Part shown: piece after piece, positions 3,490 to 40,735 of the stretch
How the letters are laid out: the number at the start of each line of letters is the position of its first letter
Numbering within the stretch: the stretch's first letter is position 1
NCBI GenBank assembly: GCA_007376385.1
Contig: VMGC01000004.1
Location: 1 to 64,000, forward strand
DNA length: 64,000 bases
From: Parcubacteria group bacterium Gr01-1014_8
GTDB taxonomy: Bacteria; Patescibacteriota; Minisyncoccia; Phycocordibacterales; UBA2100
Direction: 5' to 3'
Notes under the pieces: generated by a model
Seen by the model: the letters and a program-made list of their open reading frames with translations, nothing else
What the model was told of the DNA's origin: nothing
Databases searched by the model: none
Translations under genes and position numbers: made by a program

Positions 3490-5049
3490 ATGTCCATCAC
3501 AATTGCTGCATCGTTGTTACAAGCCGCACTCATGTTGCTGACTCTCGTTCAGTCGACGCCTGATCTGCCGCAATCCGCGAGGGATAATGCCATACAAGTT
3601 ACCGAACACGCGATTCGGGAGGCGACCATCGCGCTTACCCGGCTTGGTGCCGCACGGCCAGCCACTGCTGGAGCGGCAACGCTTTCTATAACGAACATGG
3701 CTCTTGCTACACCGCCGGGGATGACCATGACCCTGCAATACAGCAACATGCCGCGGGCAGGAGTCCGCATCATTAATACCGCTGGCGTTGTCGTATGGAC
3801 CCAGGAATTGACCCAGACGGGCGCAGGCACGTTGAATATGCCGCTCCCTATCACGTTGCCGGAGGGGAGCTACACGGCGCAAGCGTTTGGAACAGACAAC
3901 TCTATATACACGACGAGTCAGCCGTATTATTTTGCCGGTAACGTGCCAGCAAGCATAGCGTATAACAATCAATCGCAGTCGTCTGTCGTTGCGGTCTACA
4001 CAAACCTTCCGGCTGGAGTCCACGTCAATCTCCTCTGGAAAAATCCTCAAGGGCAATGGCTCCAAGTAGGAGAGTCCAACATTGCTCCAAACGGAGGCAG
4101 TGGTACGGTCAGCGTGCAAATTACCTTGGTTGACCCTCTTACCGGAAAAGTTCCCCTTGGTTCCTATAAATTTCGAATTCAAAAAACGAGCGACATAACC
4201 TGGTCTCTCGAAAGTGCGCCTTTTGCCTTCATCGGCGGACCGAGGACGGGACTCTGGTGTGATATCACATCGAATAAAGCGAATGTAGTTGCAGGAGAAC
4301 AGTTCATTCTGACATGGACCGGAAGCCAGGAGATCAAGGAACCGGTCATGCATCGGCATATAACCGGAGGCGGCAAGGTACTCGTCTCGCAAAACGGTTC
4401 GATGAGTATGACAGCAGAAAGCGGACCTAAAATAATCTGGTTCACGATTGGTAGTGGCGGACTGACAGGTACGCCCAACGAGATCTGCTCCGTAAAGATG
4501 AATATTGTTTCCTCAACAATGGCTGCTCCGACAGTTTCCATGGAAGCATCTCCTTCAACGCTTGGCGCGGCCCAAACTGCCATGCTGACCTGGAGTTCAA
4601 CCTACGCGAATCGCTGCACTCTTCAATACGATGGTAAAGAAGATATCGTCTCATTGAGCGGCTCAAGGACGGTGACGCCGACACATACAACGGCGTACCG
4701 TTTCGTCTGCACGAATGATCCTGGCTCTGGGAGAGACGGACCTTCTGCAGAAACAACGGCAGTGATAACCATTGCCGCGCCGACGTGTACGCTCACCACA
4801 GACAAAAGTTCGTATAAACTCGGCGAAGCCATCGTGCTTCAGTGGGCAAGCCAAAATGCGACATACGCATCGTTCTGGCAGGACACATCCGGCAGGGATC
4901 ATCTGCTGCTCCCTGGCGACAAATTATCGGCAAGCGGCATGCATACCATCACGGCGAGTGTCCTTGGCAATCCGCCAGTCACTCTCCTTATCTACAATTA
5001 CTTCAACAATAACGCCTGCAGTGTAGTCATCCCGGTCACTCAAAACTAG
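3490..5049 (+). CDS. secreted hypothetical protein (519 aa), beta-rich, Ig-like-repeat appearance
   Basis: N-terminal signal peptide MSITIAASLLQAALMLLTLVQS; Thr/Ser/Gly-rich repeated segments; no catalytic motif recognized. Confidence 0.5.
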   Translation: MSITIAASLLQAALMLLTLVQSTPDLPQSARDNAIQVTEHAIREATIALTRLGAARPATAGAATLSITNMALATPPGMTMTLQYSNMPRAGVRIINTAGVVVWTQELTQTGAGTLNMPLPITLPEGSYTAQAFGTDNSIYTTSQPYYFAGNVPASIAYNNQSQSSVVAVYTNLPAGVHVNLLWKNPQGQWLQVGESNIAPNGGSGTVSVQITLVDPLTGKVPLGSYKFRIQKTSDITWSLESAPFAFIGGPRTGLWCDITSNKANVVAGEQFILTWTGSQEIKEPVMHRHITGGGKVLVSQNGSMSMTAESGPKIIWFTIGSGGLTGTPNEICSVKMNIVSSTMAAPTVSMEASPSTLGAAQTAMLTWSSTYANRCTLQYDGKEDIVSLSGSRTVTPTHTTAYRFVCTNDPGSGRDGPSAETTAVITIAAPTCTLTTDKSSYKLGEAIVLQWASQNATYASFWQDTSGRDHLLLPGDKLSASGMHTITASVLGNPPVTLLIYNYFNNNACSVVIPVTQN

Positions 5050-12057: not shown

Positions 12058-12220
12058 ATTGTTTATTAATTAATCGCCAGTTTCCCACTGGTTAATAATG
12101 TTGCTAATAACGTAAAGAACTTTGCTGTGCCGTGCCCCGTGAGATGGCTTCGCCTATCTCATGGGGTTTCCCGTACAGCCTCCCGAGCACGACTTTCATG
12201 CTCGGAGTGGCTAGAAAGGA

Positions 12221-13513
12221 CTAAGTTGGATCTGGCGGCGGCGCATCTCCCGGATCGCACAGAAAATTCGGATTATGCCGCACTTGTTCCGCGCGGAACA
12301 CGATGTCGGCGGTCAACGAATCCGTCTGCGCTTCGTTACCCATCGTGCTGCCATCGCACGTGATAACGCCCGTCAGACCGTCAACAATTTGCACTCCTGC
12401 GCACCACGCAGAGCCGATGTACTCTGTCGTACTCGCAACGAGTGCGCCATTTCCTGTCGTAGAGTCGTGAAGCGGGAGCGTAATGCCGTTCCCGAAGAGT
12501 CCTGATGAGAGAGACGTCTCCGTCGGCGGTTCATACACGCCGTCTCCATCGTCATTCCACAGGAAGAGATTGAGATAGTTGCCAAGCTCTCCGAGCGGGC
12601 TGTTGTTCAAATCCACGAGACTCGCGGCGTTGCATTCCGCGTCCGGTACGAGCGCGTCTGATTCCGGTTCGGTGCAGGTGTTGTCGTCGTTCTCCACATT
12701 CGTGATGTCCATGCACGCCCAGCCGTCGTTGGTGCCGACATGCAAACTGAATACATCGCGCCCGTCGTCGCCCGGCTTTACGTCGGTGAAATTCCAGAAC
12801 GGCTCGCCCGTGAGATCAATGGGGTCAACAAAGATTCCATCGCCATCAACGACGAGTTTGAAGAGAAGCCCCGCGGGATTAAACGTTGGGTCGCCTCCGC
12901 CTCCACCAGGGTTCGTTACAACTGCGGTAAGTGTATTTGGGCCCTGCACGAAATCCGCCGCTGGTACGACGTACACGTCTTCTGCAGCAGAGGTGAAATT
13001 ACTTGCCGCAAATTCGCTACCGATCGCATTGCCGTTCAGAGAAACAGAATAGAAGTTATCCGCGGCAATGTAGAGCGTCGCGCCGACGATCGGCCCATTC
13101 ACGTTGAACGTCCGAGTGAACGTATTTGTCTGCGTAACGCTCGCGTCCGATGGGCCATCAGCAGCCCAGATCCAGAACGAGCCATCGTTCGCGCCATCAT
13201 TTGGTGGTCCCGCAACATGCCCGCCATCCAAATCCGCAGTCCACGACGGATGAATGAACGTAACCGCAACGGCATTTCCCGCGCCGTCGTCTCCTGTGAA
13301 TGTCGTTAGTGTGTCGCTCACGATGGTAAAGTCCTCGCCGTTTGGTTCGCCGTTGTACGTTGAAAGGGAATGGTCGATCTTGAGGTCAATCGAGCCGGCG
13401 GTGAAGATATTTCCCGCCGAAGTTTCGGTGTCAGAAAAGAAAGCACCCGTTGCTCCCGCTACTGCTCCGCCGATGAAGATGATCATACCGAGTCCCAGTA
13501 ATATTCGTCGCAT
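12221..13513 (-). CDS. TasA/camelysin-like SipW-dependent secreted protein, paralog 2 (430 aa)
   Basis: MRRILLGLGMIIFIGGAVAGATGAFFSDTETSAGNIFTAGSIDLKID; C-terminal CDGSTMGNEAQTD...FRAEQVRHN...FLC. Confidence 0.7.
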   Translation of the reverse strand: MRRILLGLGMIIFIGGAVAGATGAFFSDTETSAGNIFTAGSIDLKIDHSLSTYNGEPNGEDFTIVSDTLTTFTGDDGAGNAVAVTFIHPSWTADLDGGHVAGPPNDGANDGSFWIWAADGPSDASVTQTNTFTRTFNVNGPIVGATLYIAADNFYSVSLNGNAIGSEFAASNFTSAAEDVYVVPAADFVQGPNTLTAVVTNPGGGGGDPTFNPAGLLFKLVVDGDGIFVDPIDLTGEPFWNFTDVKPGDDGRDVFSLHVGTNDGWACMDITNVENDDNTCTEPESDALVPDAECNAASLVDLNNSPLGELGNYLNLFLWNDDGDGVYEPPTETSLSSGLFGNGITLPLHDSTTGNGALVASTTEYIGSAWCAGVQIVDGLTGVITCDGSTMGNEAQTDSLTADIVFRAEQVRHNPNFLCDPGDAPPPDPT

Positions 13514-13696
13514 AGTATCTATGCGCCGGTTTCCCTATATTAGTTAGCTGTTCTAAAAACGTTGCTGTTCACTGAACAGCCCCTCCAGTCGCAGGTTCGC
13601 CAAGGCGACTCCTTGAGATCCCCAAGGTGTCGCCTTGTGCATCGGCGAGCTGCGGCTGGATTCGGCTATCCACGAACCATCTAATTTCGTAGAGAA

Positions 13697-14596
13697 CTAG
13701 GAAGCTGGTACAGGTGTTACCCAAGATGGAACGTAGTCTGTCTCACACTGGAAGTCAGCGTTATTTCGAGATTGCTCCGCATAGAACTCGAGATCGCCAA
13801 TGACTCTGTCAGTTTGAGCTGCGTTATCAACTCCTGTTCCGTCGCAGTTCCAACCGGTTCCGAGGGTAGTCGGATTACCCGTGTTGACGCCATCTTGGAC
13901 GAGGGCATCGGGCGTCATTGCACCGAAGCACCAAGCCTTACCGATGTAGTTCGTTGATCCGCCAGGAACCCCGGCGCTACCGAAGGGACCTCCGGAAGCG
14001 TCAGAAAGAGCGATTTGACCTTGTGAGTCCAATCCGCTGATTGGACCGCTCAAAAAGACGGTTTCTGGTGATCCGCCTGTGCCTGCGACTGGCTCGAAGA
14101 CGTTGTCTCCGTCGTCCACCCAGAACGCGAAGTTGACTTGCTCGTCCAACTCACCGAGACCTGGACCCGGCTCTGCACAATTTGCGTCATCATCACCTTC
14201 CGGTTCCGTACAGGTATTATCTTCGTCTGTTGTTACTTGCGCCGCTGCGCACAGCCAAGCGTTGTTGCTACCGACGTGAATGGAGATTGTGTCCTCACCA
14301 AGGTCTCCCGGTTTCAGATCAATGAAATCGAAGAACTTCTCAATAGTTAGGTCAGTTAAATCCCACGAGGTGGCAGCCCACGCGACCATATTGTCGGGGC
14401 CTGATCCTTGTGTAGAAGTAGCGGTGATGTAGCTGTCATTATCGATCTGTAAATCAATATCTCCCGCCGCAAACGTGTTGCCAGTAGATGTTTCTGTGTC
14501 GTTGAAAAAAGCGCCCGTGGCTCCCGCCGCGACCGCCCCCACAAACACGATCATCCCCAAACTTATGAGAATTCTTTGTACTGATAGTAATTGCAT
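13697..14596 (-). CDS. TasA/camelysin-like SipW-dependent secreted protein, paralog 1 (299 aa; first gene of the cluster)
   Basis: MQLLSVQRILISLGMIVFVGAVAAGATGAFFNDTETSTGNTFAAGDIDLQID; C-terminal CDGTGVDNAAQTD...FYAEQSRNN...FQC. Confidence 0.7.
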   Translation of the reverse strand: MQLLSVQRILISLGMIVFVGAVAAGATGAFFNDTETSTGNTFAAGDIDLQIDNDSYITATSTQGSGPDNMVAWAATSWDLTDLTIEKFFDFIDLKPGDLGEDTISIHVGSNNAWLCAAAQVTTDEDNTCTEPEGDDDANCAEPGPGLGELDEQVNFAFWVDDGDNVFEPVAGTGGSPETVFLSGPISGLDSQGQIALSDASGGPFGSAGVPGGSTNYIGKAWCFGAMTPDALVQDGVNTGNPTTLGTGWNCDGTGVDNAAQTDRVIGDLEFYAEQSRNNADFQCETDYVPSWVTPVPAS

Positions 14597-14624
14597 ATTA
14601 TTTTTTTATTATTGATTTTTTATA

Positions 14625-14680
14625 TTTGGAGTTACGAACTCCAAACGTGCCAGATATTTGGACTTACGAACTCCAAACGT
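14625..14680. promoter_or_regulatory. two tandem palindromic boxes (24 nt each, 32-nt period) upstream of the TasA-like cluster
   Basis: tttggaGttacgaactccaaacgt (14625-14648) and tttggaCttacgaactccaaacgt (14657-14680); each has tttggag/ctccaaa inverted arms. They lie 30-85 nt upstream of the minus-strand start at 14596, beside an AT-rich stretch. Confidence 0.45.
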
Positions 14681-14825
14681 CTGTTTGGTAATTTCTTGCG
14701 TCGTTCGGAAGATCGACCACTCCGATCTCGCGATTGTTTGTACTGCTTCCTTCAGTCCACAAGCACCATGTTACCCAAGGACCTTCTCGTTTCCCGAAAG
14801 AAGAACGAAGCAGTAATTTGAATCG

Positions 14826-14945
14826 CGAGGACCTATCTGCGTGTTACCGCACAGGCAGACGCCTTTTTAACGGGGGTTACCCGGCTGGCTCCTCGGCTCG
14901 GAAATGAAAATGAATACACTTTCATTTCGCTCGCTCTATGTCGCC
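14826..14945 (+). repeat. copy A of a ~120-nt repeated structured element (candidate ncRNA)
   Basis: Shares tctgcgtg..cgcacaggcagac, a ttttaa box, gctcggaaatga.aa and tttcatttcgctcgct with copy B at 40611-40735. Contains hairpin gaaatgaaa/tttcatttc. Confidence 0.45.
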
Positions 14946-15243
14946 AGACAAGCGCAACGCGCTGGGCGAGTTAGGTCCGATGCGACAAGCGCATCAGACC
15001 TGCACGACCAACAGACAAACTGTAACGCCTTCATGATGTGGGTCTCATGAAGAAAAAATGGGTTTTCCGTGGATAACTCTTGTATAAGTGTGTGAATTGG
15101 CTCTGTATAACGATAGGGAAATCGTGTGGACAAACCTGTGGATTTATTTTCCATTGCAAACAATGCGCAGGGCGCTACGCGCCCTCTGCCCCTGTCAAGT
15201 CTTTTCTCTTTTCAGTATACCGTGGCACATCTGTCAACCGCCG

Positions 15244-15279
15244 ATACCATAATGGTGCCGACCGGCACCATTATGGTAT
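15244..15279. promoter_or_regulatory. perfect 17+2+17 bp palindrome
   Basis: ataccataatggtgccg-ac-cggcaccattatggtat. Its core tggtgccgaccggcac recurs at 15981-15996 on the other side of the PaaX-like gene. Confidence 0.45.
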
Positions 15280-15377
15280 GTTGCATATTTCACAAAAATA
15301 ACAAAAAAAGATGAAACAAGAAGAAAAAAAGAGGAGCAAGAAAGAAGCAGAGGGGATGGCAACCGAGATGACAACGA

Positions 15378-15959
15378 TTACGAGAGAGGCAATTTGAAAT
15401 GCACGCGGAATTTTCTGTCGTTCTCAATACTTTGAGCGATAAGATACACTACGCTTGGACCCAGCTTCAGCTCCGTGCGAATAAAGGATATGAATTCTTC
15501 GCATGGGTGGGGGAATATCCATACGCTTTCCTGCAATTTCACAAAACCGATTTTCTGCAGCATTTTTCGCAGTTGTACCCTTTGGCGGCGTCTCTTTTCC
15601 CAAATATCGAATATGACCACGCGCCACAAACCATCCCATTTTCGCGGGATTTGAGGTTGGATCGCTTCGGCCTGCTGGAGGCGTCCCATCTCTCGTTTTC
15701 CGCGCTCGGTAAGGGCGAATTTCCCATCGACTTTCCGCACAAAACCCTTGTCTTCTAGGCGCCCTAAGGCCTGTCGCATCCTGTGAGAAGCATTGCGCCG
15801 TCGGTTAAAATCAGGGTCGATGTGCTTCAACAATCTGGCTGCATTCGGTGCCATCAGGACGAACGTGAGTGCTGCCGCCCCAAATAGGGTCATCAGCATT
15901 GCATCCTGTATCTTTAGGCGCCTGTTATGTGCTTTCGCTTTTATTTCATGCTGTCCCAT
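15378..15959 (-). CDS. PaaX-like winged-helix transcriptional regulator
   Basis: N-terminal wHTH-like region plus a C-terminal WDGLWRVVIFDIWEKRRRQRVQLRKMLQKIGFVKLQESVWIFP segment resembling the PaaX C-terminal domain (W-G-W...R..LR..L...GF..L...VW..P). Confidence 0.5.
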   Translation of the reverse strand: MGQHEIKAKAHNRRLKIQDAMLMTLFGAAALTFVLMAPNAARLLKHIDPDFNRRRNASHRMRQALGRLEDKGFVRKVDGKFALTERGKREMGRLQQAEAIQPQIPRKWDGLWRVVIFDIWEKRRRQRVQLRKMLQKIGFVKLQESVWIFPHPCEEFISFIRTELKLGPSVVYLIAQSIENDRKFRVHFKLPLS

Positions 15960-15973
15960 ATCGAACTCAATTG

Positions 15974-16007
15974 TACCTTAGTGGTGCCGACCGGCACACG
16001 TAAGGTA
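15974..16007. promoter_or_regulatory. imperfect palindrome related to the 15244-15279 palindrome, in the divergent promoter region
   Basis: tacctta-gtggtgccgaccggcacacg-taaggta has outer 7-bp perfect arms and the shared core ggtgccgaccggcac. It lies between the PaaX-like start (15959) and the 16108 gene. Confidence 0.4.
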
Positions 16008-16107
16008 TGAGGAATATAGGATACTTACTATATGTATTGAGTGAAAAAACAAAGACACGCAATAAACAATAAACGCTGCCACGCTCAGGCTTCTTGGCGG
16101 ATAGTTC

Positions 16108-17463
16108 GTGCGTGATACGATTTCATATATGTCAGAGCCGAAGAAACCCGCAGCGTTAATACAGTCGCAATCAGGCCGACTGAATTGGGAGAGGATCGAA
16201 TCAGACGAGAATGTGCGCGCAGTTCTTATCCAAACATTCTCGCTCGGCGGAAATACGGATGACGCGGTGAATTTTCTGTCAAAAATCGGATGTACTGTGC
16301 CGGTCGAAAAATTGAAAGGGCGTTTGGATGTCGTGGGTGGCAAGCCAAAATATATCACTGCGTTACGAGCTACTCCGCCTTCGCCGGATGTAATGGAGCG
16401 GCGTCGGAACGAAGTTCAGACGCACTTGCTTCTTCTAGACCACGTGCGCTCCAGAGTGTGGTGTTTCGTCACGAATACGAGGGCTGCCGCGGTATACATG
16501 CTCAAAAAGGGCGAAATTGCGGGGGATATTGCGCGCGTCGTCTCGCGACAATTACAAATGACGCCGGAGATAGATGAGATCACGATAATACATCTGACGA
16601 AACGCGCGGGGGGCCCGGATGCGTTTGCGGCGCGCCTCCAACAAGGGAACCCTCCATTTACCGAGCCCCTCTCCGATGCAGAGCTCGCGCAGGGCAAAAA
16701 AGACGTGGAATATTATCTCCCAATAGCCAGGTCCAGAATGCGTGAAAGAGCCGAGTGGATGAAAACTGATGAGACTCGCGCATTCGTTCTTGCACTCGTC
16801 GCGGACCGCAATGTATCCGTGTTCATGATCGAATGGGCGCTGAAGAAAAAATTTGGGATGGAGCTCGGCTACAGCGGTCTATGGGACCGGATACAAAATG
16901 AGAAGGGCGATATTCTCGAAGAGAAGCGTGCGAACTTCGTCGAAGCACGCAAAGTCGGACTTGATGACGAAGAATTGAACGAACAGATGAGGGGACTCGC
17001 CGCCGAGGCTCAAAATGAATATTTCGGATATTTGCAGAACATGCATCGAAGAAAAGGCGAGCTCGCAAATATCTCAATAAACCGGAAGAAGGATATTGAT
17101 GCGCGGTCATCGTTTGAGCCGCTCCAGGCACTTGCAGAAGCGATCCGCATTCGCTCGACCCAGCTGGGGGCAACGGAGCCCCCGGCGAGCGTCACACTAC
17201 GTTATACAAATACGCCCGGAGATAAAAGGGCGGTTCCGACTCTATTTGTCGGCGTAAATGAGACTGACCCGGATGTTTCGCGGCTTTTACATTCGTACGT
17301 GCGTAAAGAGCTGCTTGAAATGCAGGCGGGATATGAAGGCATATTGCAAAGGGCGCTGACGTCAAATAAGGGCGAACCTTTTGGGCGAGCGATGCTCCGG
17401 GGCCCGAATCAGAATGATTTTGAAGTATTTTCGTTTAGCTCGAACGGACAGAACGGCCGCTGA
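16108..17463 (+). CDS. hypothetical protein (451 aa), cytoplasmic
   Basis: Long ORF with no recognized catalytic motif; divergent from the PaaX-like regulator. Confidence 0.45.
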   Translation: MRDTISYMSEPKKPAALIQSQSGRLNWERIESDENVRAVLIQTFSLGGNTDDAVNFLSKIGCTVPVEKLKGRLDVVGGKPKYITALRATPPSPDVMERRRNEVQTHLLLLDHVRSRVWCFVTNTRAAAVYMLKKGEIAGDIARVVSRQLQMTPEIDEITIIHLTKRAGGPDAFAARLQQGNPPFTEPLSDAELAQGKKDVEYYLPIARSRMRERAEWMKTDETRAFVLALVADRNVSVFMIEWALKKKFGMELGYSGLWDRIQNEKGDILEEKRANFVEARKVGLDDEELNEQMRGLAAEAQNEYFGYLQNMHRRKGELANISINRKKDIDARSSFEPLQALAEAIRIRSTQLGATEPPASVTLRYTNTPGDKRAVPTLFVGVNETDPDVSRLLHSYVRKELLEMQAGYEGILQRALTSNKGEPFGRAMLRGPNQNDFEVFSFSSNGQNGR

Positions 17464-22954: not shown

Positions 22955-23249
22955 TTTTTTTTATAACTTGTCAAAAAGATAAGGAGCTGCACTGTGCTCG
23001 CTTTTCTAACTTCCAGTGAGGTAGGGAATACCTCTGGAGGGGCTCTGCAGCGCGACAGCGCGAAGCCCGAGCAATCTTTTAGCAGAAAGATTGCGTACCC
23101 GGAAGAGGCATTCCCTGTGAGCGACCCCCTTGTGGATAAATGGCTTGCGGTGGTATATAGTGGTGTATATTTACATGCAGTGGGAGAAAGTGGGATGGCG
23201 GGCTGCACGACTCCCGCCATCCTTCCTCCCAAATAAAGAGTAAGAAATT

Positions 23250-33186: not shown

Positions 33187-34740
33187 ATGCGCTATTTCCT
33201 CTACGCCCGCAAAAGTACGGATGTCGAAGACAAACAGGTGATGTCCATCGAAGGACAGCTCGTTGAACTGCGGGCATTGGCTAAACGTGATGGATTAGAA
33301 ATTGCAGAAGAATTCATTGAAAAGCGAAGCGCGAAGATTCCAGGCCGCCCTGTATTTGAGGACATGTTAAAGCGGATCGAGAAAGACGAAGCGCACGGAA
33401 TTATCTGCTGGAAAATTGATCGTCTTTCACGCAATCCGGTTGATAGCGGGAGAATTAGTTGGCTACTTCAACAGAACATAATCCAGAAGATCGTAACGCA
33501 TGACAAGATATATCTTCCTCACGACAACGTACTCCTCATGTCTGTGGAATTCGGCATGGCGAATCAGTACATCCGAGACTTGAGTGTCAACGTGAAGCGC
33601 GGCCTCCGGCAAAAGGCACGACAAGGCGTATATCCAAGTACCGCGCCCTTGGGCTACCGCAACGACCCGTACACCAAGACCATCGTCGTGGATCGGCGCA
33701 AAGCGCCGCTCGTGCGTAAGGCATTTGAACTCTACGCAAAGAACGGCTCGCGGCTCGAAGACATTGCGCAGTTTCTTTTCGAGCACGGCATCAAGACGGG
33801 AGCGACGCGCGGATGGAGCAAGGGCGGCGGCAGGCCGCTCAAAAAAGACCAGATAACATTCCTGCTCTCTAATCCGTTTTACTTCGGCCACTTCGCCTAC
33901 AGCGGCGAGATGTACGAGGGCACGCATACGCCCATCGTGAGCAAGGAGCTTTTTGACGCGGTGCAAAAAGTCCTCGCGCTTCGCAGTCGTGCGCACCACA
34001 AAGTGGCGAACGAGCCGCAAGCGTATTGCGGCCTTTTGCATTGTGGCGAGTGCGGCTTTTCCATCACCGCCGAGGAGAAATCGAAGCGACAGAAGAACGG
34101 CAACGTACATCGCTACATTTACTATCGCTGTACGAAAAAGAAAGCCGCCGTTCATTGCTCACAGCCGTATGTGCGGGAAGAAGCGCTCGACTCGCAACTC
34201 TCCGGCTTGCTCGCAAAGTTTGTCATGCCCGCGCATTGGGCGAAGGAATTAGACGCAATGGCCGAGCGAGATGCGGCAAGCGCCTCTCAAACCACGGCGG
34301 CGTCCGTCCAAGCGATGCGGGCAAAGATTGCCGAGTTAGACGGCAAAATCGCCCGCATCACCGACCTCTTTGTCGAACAGGATATCGAGCGCGGCGACTA
34401 TCTCGAAAGGAAGCGCGCACTTATGTCCGAAAAGAAGTCGGTGCAGGAGCGAATCCTCCTGCTTGAACGGGACGCCGCCGTGTGGCTCGAACCGATGCAG
34501 AAGTGGATACAAGAGGCGCAAATGCTTGAAGAAATTGCGAAATCCAAAGACTACCCCTCCAAAAAATCCTCCCTCCAAAAAATCTTCGGCTCGAACCTCA
34601 CTCTCCACGCGCGCGAAGCGCGCGGCGTGCCGCAAAATCAGTGGTTTTCTTTGCTCACTGCCAAAGAAAACCACTCCGAAAATAACCTCGTTCCGATACT
34701 TGTGACCTCACGGGGAATCGAACCCCGGTTCCATCCTTGA
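33187..34740 (+). CDS. large serine recombinase (resolvase/invertase-type catalytic domain plus recombinase and zinc-ribbon domains)
   Basis: MRYFLYARKSTDVEDKQVMSIEGQ (catalytic Ser region), GIICWKIDRLSRN, recombinase-domain motifs, the CGLLHCGECG zinc ribbon and a C-terminal coiled coil. The 3' end is encoded by IR-R and runs into the antisense of tRNA-Glu. Confidence 0.8.
   Translation: MRYFLYARKSTDVEDKQVMSIEGQLVELRALAKRDGLEIAEEFIEKRSAKIPGRPVFEDMLKRIEKDEAHGIICWKIDRLSRNPVDSGRISWLLQQNIIQKIVTHDKIYLPHDNVLLMSVEFGMANQYIRDLSVNVKRGLRQKARQGVYPSTAPLGYRNDPYTKTIVVDRRKAPLVRKAFELYAKNGSRLEDIAQFLFEHGIKTGATRGWSKGGGRPLKKDQITFLLSNPFYFGHFAYSGEMYEGTHTPIVSKELFDAVQKVLALRSRAHHKVANEPQAYCGLLHCGECGFSITAEEKSKRQKNGNVHRYIYYRCTKKKAAVHCSQPYVREEALDSQLSGLLAKFVMPAHWAKELDAMAERDAASASQTTAASVQAMRAKIAELDGKIARITDLFVEQDIERGDYLERKRALMSEKKSVQERILLLERDAAVWLEPMQKWIQEAQMLEEIAKSKDYPSKKSSLQKIFGSNLTLHAREARGVPQNQWFSLLTAKENHSENNLVPILVTSRGIEPRFHP
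34571..34685. repeat. inverted repeat, right copy (IR-R), inside the recombinase 3' coding region
   Basis: See the mobile-element call. Local hairpin agtggttttctttg...caaagaaaaccact. Confidence 0.55.
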
Positions 34741-34774
34741 GAAGGATGTGTCCTAGCCGCTAGACGATGAGGCC
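34703..34774 (-). tRNA. tRNA-Glu (anticodon CUC), 72 nt, no encoded CCA
   Basis: The reverse complement folds as acceptor GGCCTCA/TGAGGTC, D-arm GTCT-AGCGGCTA-GGAC, anticodon stem CATCC/GGATG with loop TTCTCAA (anticodon CTC), 4-nt variable loop, T-arm CGGGG-TTCGATT-CCCCG, discriminator A. Confidence 0.8.
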
Positions 34775-40544: not shown

Positions 40545-40610
40545 GTCTCTACAAGGCATGAAAGGTTTCAAACCCCTGGGCTAGCCCAGGACCCTCGCGA
40601 AAGAGCAGCG

Positions 40611-40735
40611 CTCTTTCGCGAACTTCCGCGGCCTGTCTGCGTGCATCGCACAGGCAGACAAGCCGCAGGGTTTTAAACCTTTGCTGTCTGCGTCGCTCGG
40701 AAATGAGAAATCTACGCTTTTTCATTTCGCTCGCT
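40611..40735 (+). repeat. copy B of the ~120-nt repeated structured element, immediately upstream of atpB
   Basis: tctgcgtgcatcgcacaggcagac hairpin, ttttaaacc, gctcggaaatgagaaa...tttttcatttcgctcgct. Relative to copy A, the second hairpin keeps pairing through a G-U wobble where A has an A-U pair. Confidence 0.45.

Follow-up and report, generated by a model that had tools for sequence, protein, structure and literature searches.

A pair of palindromic boxes ahead of a TasA-like operon in a Parcubacteria bacterium: a possible REP-like hairpin element of the mRNA leader

Two near-identical palindromes stand in front of the first TasA-like gene of a Parcubacteria genome, which raises the question of whether they are bound by a regulator in the DNA, whether they act as folded elements of the mRNA, or whether they have any function at all. 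To our knowledge, almost nothing is known about gene regulation in CPR/Patescibacteria, and literature searches turned up nothing specific to CPR on TasA, REP elements or promoters. TasA-like, SipW-dependent fibre operons are widespread in CPR, with thousands of homologues, and are probably highly expressed. We analysed a stretch of 64,000 nucleotides carrying such an operon (hereafter, the window) and compared it with the loci that encode the nearest homologues of the window proteins and of those of a second box-bearing lineage (L020), as well as with two genomes sharing a 23-nt word of the leader. Our preferred answer, to which we assign a probability of roughly 0.38, is that the boxes represent a low-copy, REP-like hairpin element that would be transcribed as two stem-loops of the leader; the term does not imply membership of the REP family. 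We rank this reading first and a pair of operators second, and the two are close. Common to both is the view, drawn from sequence comparison, that some protein probably recognises the palindrome specifically.

A repeat finder applied to the 64-kb window returned a 27-nt direct repeat (14622-14648 and 14654-14680; 26/27 identical, 96%; start-to-start distance of 32 nt), confirming the preliminary description of two tandem palindromic boxes 32 nt apart before the first TasA-like gene. The repeat unit is ATATTTGGA[G/C]TTACGAACTCCAAACGT. On the gene-sense (minus) strand both boxes have the form TTTGGAGTT-CGT-AA[C/G]TCCAAA, and the palindrome of box 1 is TTTGGAGTT-CGT-AACTCCAAA. The palindromic character described earlier was thus borne out, whereas the proposed division into two 7-nt arms and a 7-nt middle has to be replaced by 9-bp arms flanking an asymmetric centre of 3 nt. 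Box 2 carries a single G/G mismatch at ±4, and its stem is lengthened by four outer CAGA/TCTG pairs. The elements of the pair and of the adjoining gene are as follows:

14622 to 14648, minus strand: box 1 unit, with a perfect 21-bp palindrome at 14625-14645 whose centre lies 39 nt 5' of the ATG
14649 to 14683, minus strand: box 2, with its unit at 14654-14680 and its palindrome at 14657-14677, the centre lying 71 nt 5' of the ATG
14597 to 14624, minus strand: spacer of 28 nt from box 1 to the start codon, A/T at 27/28 positions, with no Shine-Dalgarno (SD) sequence
13697 to 14596, minus strand: first TasA/Peptidase_M73-like gene, 299 aa, ATG at 14596, assigned from Pfam and the names of homologues
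13564 to 13580, gene strand: canonical terminator with a U-tract after the first gene, from the terminator scan

Both boxes fall within the format of a dyad-symmetric site of ~14-22 bp, with 9-bp arms and a 3-bp centre and, in box 2, one mismatch. As RNA, box 1 is predicted to fold into a hairpin with a free energy of -10.6 kcal/mol (z = -3.8; covariance-model score of 44 bits) and box 2 into one of -13 kcal/mol; folded together, they form two independent stable stem-loops. The 21-mer was found only at the two box sites in 64 kb, and 0/100 dinucleotide shuffles contained a match. The window holds 6 distinct perfect palindromes with 9-bp arms (11 hits), compared with ~2.2 hits per mononucleotide shuffle. 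A lone perfect palindrome of this kind is therefore not rare, being only mildly enriched, whereas the same 27-mer occurring twice is far beyond chance. The identity at an offset of 32 nt covers the 27-mer only, and the 5-nt joints are wholly different; because the identity ends there and the joints are unrelated, the pair is not a simple fresh 32-nt tandem duplication. L001, an independent assembly from the same population, does not differ from the window in this region. Elsewhere in the window, other perfect palindromes with arms of 9-14 bp occur at 34640-34675, 40595-40621 and 23071-23094, the first of them ~27 nt from a tRNA-Glu gene (34702-34774).

The protein encoded by the gene that follows the boxes matches exactly a database entry from Parcubacteria group bacterium Gr01-1014_8, annotated there as hypothetical. 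Its Pfam hit is weak, and the TasA assignment comes mainly from homologues named as TasA family or SipW-dependent; public gene calls often begin such homologues at an internal methionine (MIVF...). The minus-strand cluster continues to a total of 3-4 TasA/Peptidase_M73-like paralogues, followed by a SipW-like S24/S26 peptidase and an LTD-domain protein, and the window also encodes mraW, PBP, Mur ligase and ATP synthase genes. SD-like sequences were seen at only ~3/21 of the gene starts checked in the window, and all of the TasA-like paralogues lack one, as do most genes in the window. Since SD-less starts are typical here, the A-rich 28 nt between box 1 and the ATG look like a normal start region rather than the adjoining AT-rich promoter suggested previously. 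A consensus scan of the gene strand from 13400 to 16200 returned no sigma-70-like promoter (non-consensus promoters fall outside such a scan), and a relaxed scan near the boxes, covering the upstream regions of the window, L020 and L009, likewise returned no sigma-70-like site. In the sigma-70-like scans of the window and L020, the boxes therefore neither adjoin nor overlap a core promoter.

On the gene strand, the terminator scan returned no terminator at either box palindrome, box 1 being followed by an A-run with no U-tract. The sole hit near the boxes lies on the opposite (plus) strand at 14673-14688 and takes in the edge of box 2; no plus-strand gene lies upstream of it. Because a U-tract is missing from the transcribed strand, we rejected the reading of the boxes as intrinsic (rho-independent) terminators. 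L020 has a canonical terminator at ~4876-4912, read off the sequence. Upstream of the boxes, a non-coding region of 780 nt extends to a same-strand gene for a 193-aa PaaX_M/winged-helix protein (15378-15959). About 100 nt 3' of that PaaX-like gene lies a perfect palindrome of 36 bp (15244-15279; ATACCATAATGGTGCCG-AC-CGGCACCATTATGGTAT, 17-bp arms), which has no U-tract on the gene strand and within which the independent Logan contig L001 breaks.

The 780-nt region contains two conserved elements:

14690 to 14832, minus strand: structured leader of ~140 nt directly 5' of the boxes, with equivalents at 5412-5545 in L020 and 2771-2900 in L009
15068 to 15145, minus strand: candidate distal regulatory/promoter region with DnaA-box-like TnTCCACn repeats at 15137-15145, 15125-15133 and 15068-15076

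The leader is near-identical in the window, L020 and L009, lineages whose TasA-like proteins are 53% (window and L020) and 68% (window and L009) identical, and it is predicted to fold very stably (z = -6.0). Among its 39 predicted pairs we counted 2 compensatory double changes and 5 one-sided changes, each one-sided change leaving a G.U or G-C pair intact on the sense strand; apart from two cells affected by alignment gaps and one U-U, no cell is unpaired, and the one-sided substitutions are G.U-compatible solely on the sense strand. A search with Rfam 15 yielded only the tRNA-Glu above threshold in the window, and by E-value nothing credible in 14400-15500 or in five related loci. The leader pattern of the window, GCTTCGTTCTTCTTTCGGGAAAC, matched two genomes among GTDB representatives. 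From these comparisons, the leader emerges as a candidate for a new cis-regulatory RNA in the TasA-like operons of Parcubacteria.

Further upstream, the TnTCCACn direct repeats (11-12 nt spacing, gene-sense, 160-550 nt 5' of the ATG) are conserved in nine lineages, namely the window, L003, L009, L010, L012, L020, L022, L023 and L025, and might be bound by a response regulator or by DnaA in a regulatory role. The final repeat often lies within a TTCCnnGGAA palindrome. Just 3' of the repeats, four lineages (L003, L010, L022 and L023) have sigma-70-like candidates, which would give leaders of ~220-400 nt, and all of the related loci have a long non-coding region (250-1330 nt) 5' of the first TasA-like gene. 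As the boxes of the window lie 3' of a structured leader with sense-only G.U-compatible changes, transcription probably starts far upstream of them, and the earlier placement of the boxes near the promoter is accordingly not upheld.

Two short motifs also recur in these upstream regions. GGTCGRT is found 50-190 nt 5' of the ATG in the window (~14712-14718), L002, L003, L009, L010, L012, L022, L023 and L025, mostly on the 3' side of a loop closed by a hairpin stem that varies in sequence from lineage to lineage; single-sequence folds were too inconsistent to support one common GGTCGRT hairpin structure. The heptamer GGGAAAC is present on the minus strand in every non-coding stretch 5' of TasA-like genes 1-3 (14795, 13535, 12172 and 12086); these sites account for 4/6 of its minus-strand hits in 64 kb, and at least 2 are in hairpin loops.

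Beyond the window, the family core TGGnnTTCGTAAnnCCA recurs in two further CPR lineages. L020 carries a pair at the equivalent position before its TasA-like gene, composed of TATGGATTTACGAAACCCATA (centre 51 nt from the ATG) and TATGGACTTCGTAAGTCCATA (centre 30 nt from the ATG); the two are 21 nt apart with oppositely oriented centres, and in both boxes a T→A change at ±9 is symmetric, affecting both arms. The other lineage has a single copy, CCtGATATtTTTGGACTTACGAACTCCAAAaTGTC, in L016, identical in L028-L034, which represent a single population. Its core is the same as that of box 2, including the G/G mismatch, and 8/9 left-flank bases are common to both; its flanks resemble box 2 more than the orthologous L020 boxes do. 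This copy lies behind a class-II aminoacyl-tRNA synthetase gene, 7 nt past its stop codon. It is followed by a second hairpin and is ~50 nt 5' of a promoter-like TTGACT-18-TATTGT for a 74-aa ORF, after which come scpA and scpB.

Alignment of the five copies from the three lineages revealed the invariant pattern T-TGG--TTCGTAA-TCCA-A, with variation at ±4, ±5 and ±9. The asymmetric centre (CGT/ACG) is invariant in all five, even though it is present in both orientations; because flipping the orientation by point mutation needs all three centre bases changed, it stems from inversion or independent insertion instead. The region from leader to ATG is unalignable among the window, L020 and L009, and the core has nonetheless been kept in the window and L020. 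Such conservation amid unalignable surroundings makes sequence-specific recognition by some protein plausible.

At the orthologous gene, the box pair was found in L020 only, being absent upstream in L002, L003, L009/L021, L010, L012, L022-L025 and L035; besides the window and L020, 11 distinct lineages that we read or scanned are boxless, and no box was present in any of the lineages obtained from the closest homologues of the window and L020 proteins. L009/L021, which have the same leader and of which L009 has the closest TasA-like protein among the leader-keepers, carry two other hairpins in place of the boxes. One hairpin 5' of gene 1 in L009 (~2935-2975), exactly at the place of the boxes in the window, corresponds to the GAGATAG hairpin found 5' of TasA-like gene 3 in the window (CCCC..GAGATAG-loop-ATCTCACGGGG; ~12150-12190, minus strand), a recurrence that suggests interchangeable hairpin modules in these leaders. 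L023 has a 23-bp palindrome of its own, TGATTGACCTC[C/G]GAGGTCAATCA, present twice (~1840-1862 and ~2559-2581), the copies flanking a 221-aa gene directly 5' of the L023 TasA leader. To judge by these sequences, low-copy, lineage-specific palindrome pairs may be a recurring feature of TasA-like loci.

Searches for further copies returned few. The exact 21-mer had 0 matches in 185,579 representative genomes, and the family-level pattern had 0 matches in viral contigs. In JGI metagenomes, the 21-mer gave 6 hits from three unrelated sequences, one of which (L016) is the genuine relative described above. We dismissed the others as coincidence: the hits in L014, L017 and L019 are inside the coding sequence of a RelB/DinJ-like antitoxin, in which the 21-mer encodes PLELRTPN (a match that would mislead motif-only searches), and those in L015 and L018 are in a microsatellite-rich, eukaryote-like contig. 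When the window and 21 loci were searched with a covariance model (R1) built from the five copies, no diverged copies were detected, and ~125 kb of related loci contained no copies beyond those known. Candidates for a small protein shared by the box-bearing loci were discarded: the 126-aa ORFs of the window and L020 are unrelated to each other, and the 74-aa zinc-ribbon ORF of L016 has itself as its only database match and no relative in the window.

How, then, are these observations best explained? Several speak for the REP-like reading. The copies are extragenic imperfect palindromes occurring in either orientation, as a direct pair in the window, an inverted pair in L020 and singly in L016/L028; they differ in presence and absence among close relatives; and their location in the leader is probably transcribed and has no adjoining promoter. 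The 26/27 identity of the window copies, reaching into non-palindromic flanks, would be expected of repeat copies more than of paired operators, and by sequence the invariant asymmetric centre and the copy in the spacer behind the aminoacyl-tRNA synthetase gene fit a hairpin repeat better than a classical operator. Against the REP-like reading stands the very low copy number: where REP/BIME elements number tens to hundreds per genome, we found one locus in 64 kb and none extra in related loci. No GTAG head is present beside any of the copies, and no transposase domain was detected in the few neighbouring ORFs scanned. The recurrence of pairs at the same gene in two lineages with spacings of 32 and 21 nt, equal to 3 and 2 helical turns, also counts against it, this being the pattern of cooperative operators. 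The case comprises five copies from three lineages together with a transcription of the boxes that we infer.

That same pattern leads to the closest competitor, in which a putative homodimeric regulator would bind both 21-bp palindromes cooperatively on one helix face and control the TasA-like operon. We regard this as a tentative second choice and its truth as doubtful. The dyad symmetry, perfect in box 1 and near-perfect in box 2, the symmetric T→A change in both arms of both L020 boxes, the location of both pairs at the same place, and the retention of the core where flanking DNA is unalignable are all to be expected of such sites, and the low copy number would suit a small regulon. Moreover, the L028 box lies near a promoter-like sequence, and the distantly related L035 shows a good promoter close to the gene, 81 nt 5' of the ATG, so proximal promoters do exist in this gene family. 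Against operators are the lack of a promoter-like site at or beside the boxes in the window and L020, their position 3' of a leader that is probably transcribed, the near-identity of the window copies with their flanks included, the non-palindromic flanks common to box 2 and the L016 copy despite unrelated contexts, and the lack of the site in L009 and all other lineages. The centre of a dimer's operator is usually its least constrained part, whereas the central 3 bp of the boxes are both invariant and asymmetric. The preliminary description had read the boxes as two sites for a dimeric regulator; the dyads, the L020 pair and the integral helical turns agree with that proposal, whereas the missing adjoining promoter, the leader upstream and the copy in the synthetase spacer do not. 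The PaaX-like regulator that it named is not supported, for the nearby gene does not co-occur with the boxes, being syntenic in the boxless L003 and absent from the 5.6 kb upstream in the box-bearing L020. What is left is a variant in which a bound protein would either block transcription within the leader or act on a proximal promoter that escaped recognition, with both PaaX and phase variation set aside. Taken together, the operator interpretation is possible on sequence grounds, and it is neither the best supported nor tied to the regulator that was proposed.

The remaining explanations are less probable. The boxes could be lineage-specific RNA stem-loops forming a variable "expression platform" of the leader, duplicated locally, in which pairing alone matters. 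This would agree with the presence of some hairpin or short repeat between leader and A-rich start in every lineage (L009, L020, L002, L010 and L024), with the resemblance of the L009 hairpin to the one before TasA-like gene 3, with the compensatory and G.U changes of the leader, and with the rarity of SD sequences in the genome. We nevertheless consider it unlikely, given that it leaves unexplained why the same 17-21 nt, loop included, occur in the window, L020 and an unrelated locus of a third organism, and why both orientations, which produce different RNA loops, are found; nor is there a U-tract or a sequestration of the start codon that would give an obvious switch. A functionless, recent tandem duplication is improbable: the near-identity of the two copies and the frequency of short tandem repeats in the equivalent spacer of relatives argue for it, whereas the end of the identity at 27 nt, the different joints and the retention of the core in L020 and L016 argue against it. 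Least probable by some distance is a part in a phase-variable (invertible or copy-number) switch or in a replication origin with DnaA boxes and an AT-rich unwinding element. To its credit are the DnaA-box-like repeats 440-550 nt away, the AT-rich stretch beside box 1 and the cumulative GC skew, which reaches a local minimum at about 16 kb. At fine scale, however, the skew dip tracks the minus-strand cluster at 7-16 kb, and the window-wide minimum is the start of the window; no dnaA gene is nearby, and the TCCACA repeats are kept 5' of TasA-like operons in nine lineages with differing neighbour genes. We rejected an origin on the basis of the skew and the missing dnaA. The phase-variable element of the preliminary description fared no better, and a fimS-type invertible switch was likewise rejected, there being no flanking inverted-repeat pair, no recombinase domain in the neighbouring ORFs scanned, and the same sequence and orientation in the two assemblies (window and L001).

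Under the favoured REP-like reading, transcription would start several hundred nucleotides upstream, near the TCCACA repeats, and would cross the leader and the boxes into the gene; with no terminator between leader and gene, the boxes would be read through. In the mRNA, each would then fold on itself, giving two stem-loops immediately ahead of the A-rich start, which is unstructured and SD-less. Since the genome is largely without SD sequences, an unstructured start region matters for translation, and the hairpins may lock neighbouring sequence locally, sparing the start region from long-range pairing with the leader. In addition or instead, they could shield the message from nucleases, by analogy with REP and 5' stabiliser hairpins elsewhere. 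Copies may have spread or been retained via a putative protein recognising the hairpin, including its invariant CGT centre. We also entertain a more specific scheme, which we hold to be slightly less probable than stem-loops in which pairing alone matters: that the boxes are the lineage-specific output module of the structured leader (14690-14832, with its GGTCGRT and GGGAAAC loops), read by a dedicated palindrome-recognising protein in a CPR-specific fibre circuit.

Taken alone, the boxes are ordinary, being conserved short palindromes of the repeat or binding-site type; more is to be expected of the leader and the TCCACA repeats. Should the boxes be operators, they would delimit a small regulon and offer a starting point in the search for a CPR regulator; should they be REP-like, reduced genomes too carry dispersed hairpin repeats that remodel mRNA leaders; and if the circuit with a dedicated protein were real, it would control cell-surface fibres that episymbionts may use for host contact. 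Either way, the locus constitutes a testable regulatory unit composed of TCCACA repeats, a near-identical leader and a variable hairpin module.

Comparison with known systems places the boxes in context. TIGR systems have box C/D motifs and a Tas protein with a Nop domain, and CRISPR arrays have cas genes. The alternating 8-12-nt repeats and 9-nt spacers of TIGR arrays (PMC12045711) are absent at the boxes. We discarded both array types, as there are only two units, the repeat is the whole unit, the joint is 5 nt, and no such genes are found among the neighbours. The operators of PaaX, the regulator of the phenylacetate regulon in E. coli and Pseudomonas, are similar in that a palindrome lies near a PaaX_M and winged-helix gene; they differ in that the local protein is a 193-aa short form, 40% identical to its syntenic L003 counterpart, whose presence does not track the boxes, and the boxes presumably do not match the PaaX motif.

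The tapA-sipW-tasA operon of Bacillus subtilis, with its SinR and AbrB sites, likewise has multiple repeats 5' of a TasA/SipW fibre operon, and by analogy the paired sites and helical phasing of the boxes would permit cooperative binding by a putative protein. The SinR consensus is GTTCTYT; the boxes, by contrast, lack GTTCTYT, no SinR- or AbrB-like gene was identified nearby, and no recognisable promoter lies beside them. Classical REPs are abundant, begin with a conserved GTAG tetranucleotide and occur in genomes that encode a RAYT; we know of no RAYT transposase for the genomes with boxes. The boxes differ from REP/BIME elements in being very low-copy, in lacking the GTAG head, in having a CPR host with a small genome, and in occupying a 5' leader as opposed to mainly 3' ends. 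The two are alike in being short imperfect palindromes of ~21-35 nt that lie in UTRs or intergenic DNA that is transcribed (for the boxes, probably), form mRNA stem-loops, occur singly or in adjacent direct or inverted pairs, and differ in presence between relatives. Finally, the leader stabilisers of ompA, aprE and the S-layer gene slpA, which differ from the boxes in belonging to no dispersed repeat family and presumably also in occupying the very 5' terminus of the transcript, share with them the combination of stable hairpins, a long leader and an abundant secreted structural protein, with the hairpins placed just before the start region.
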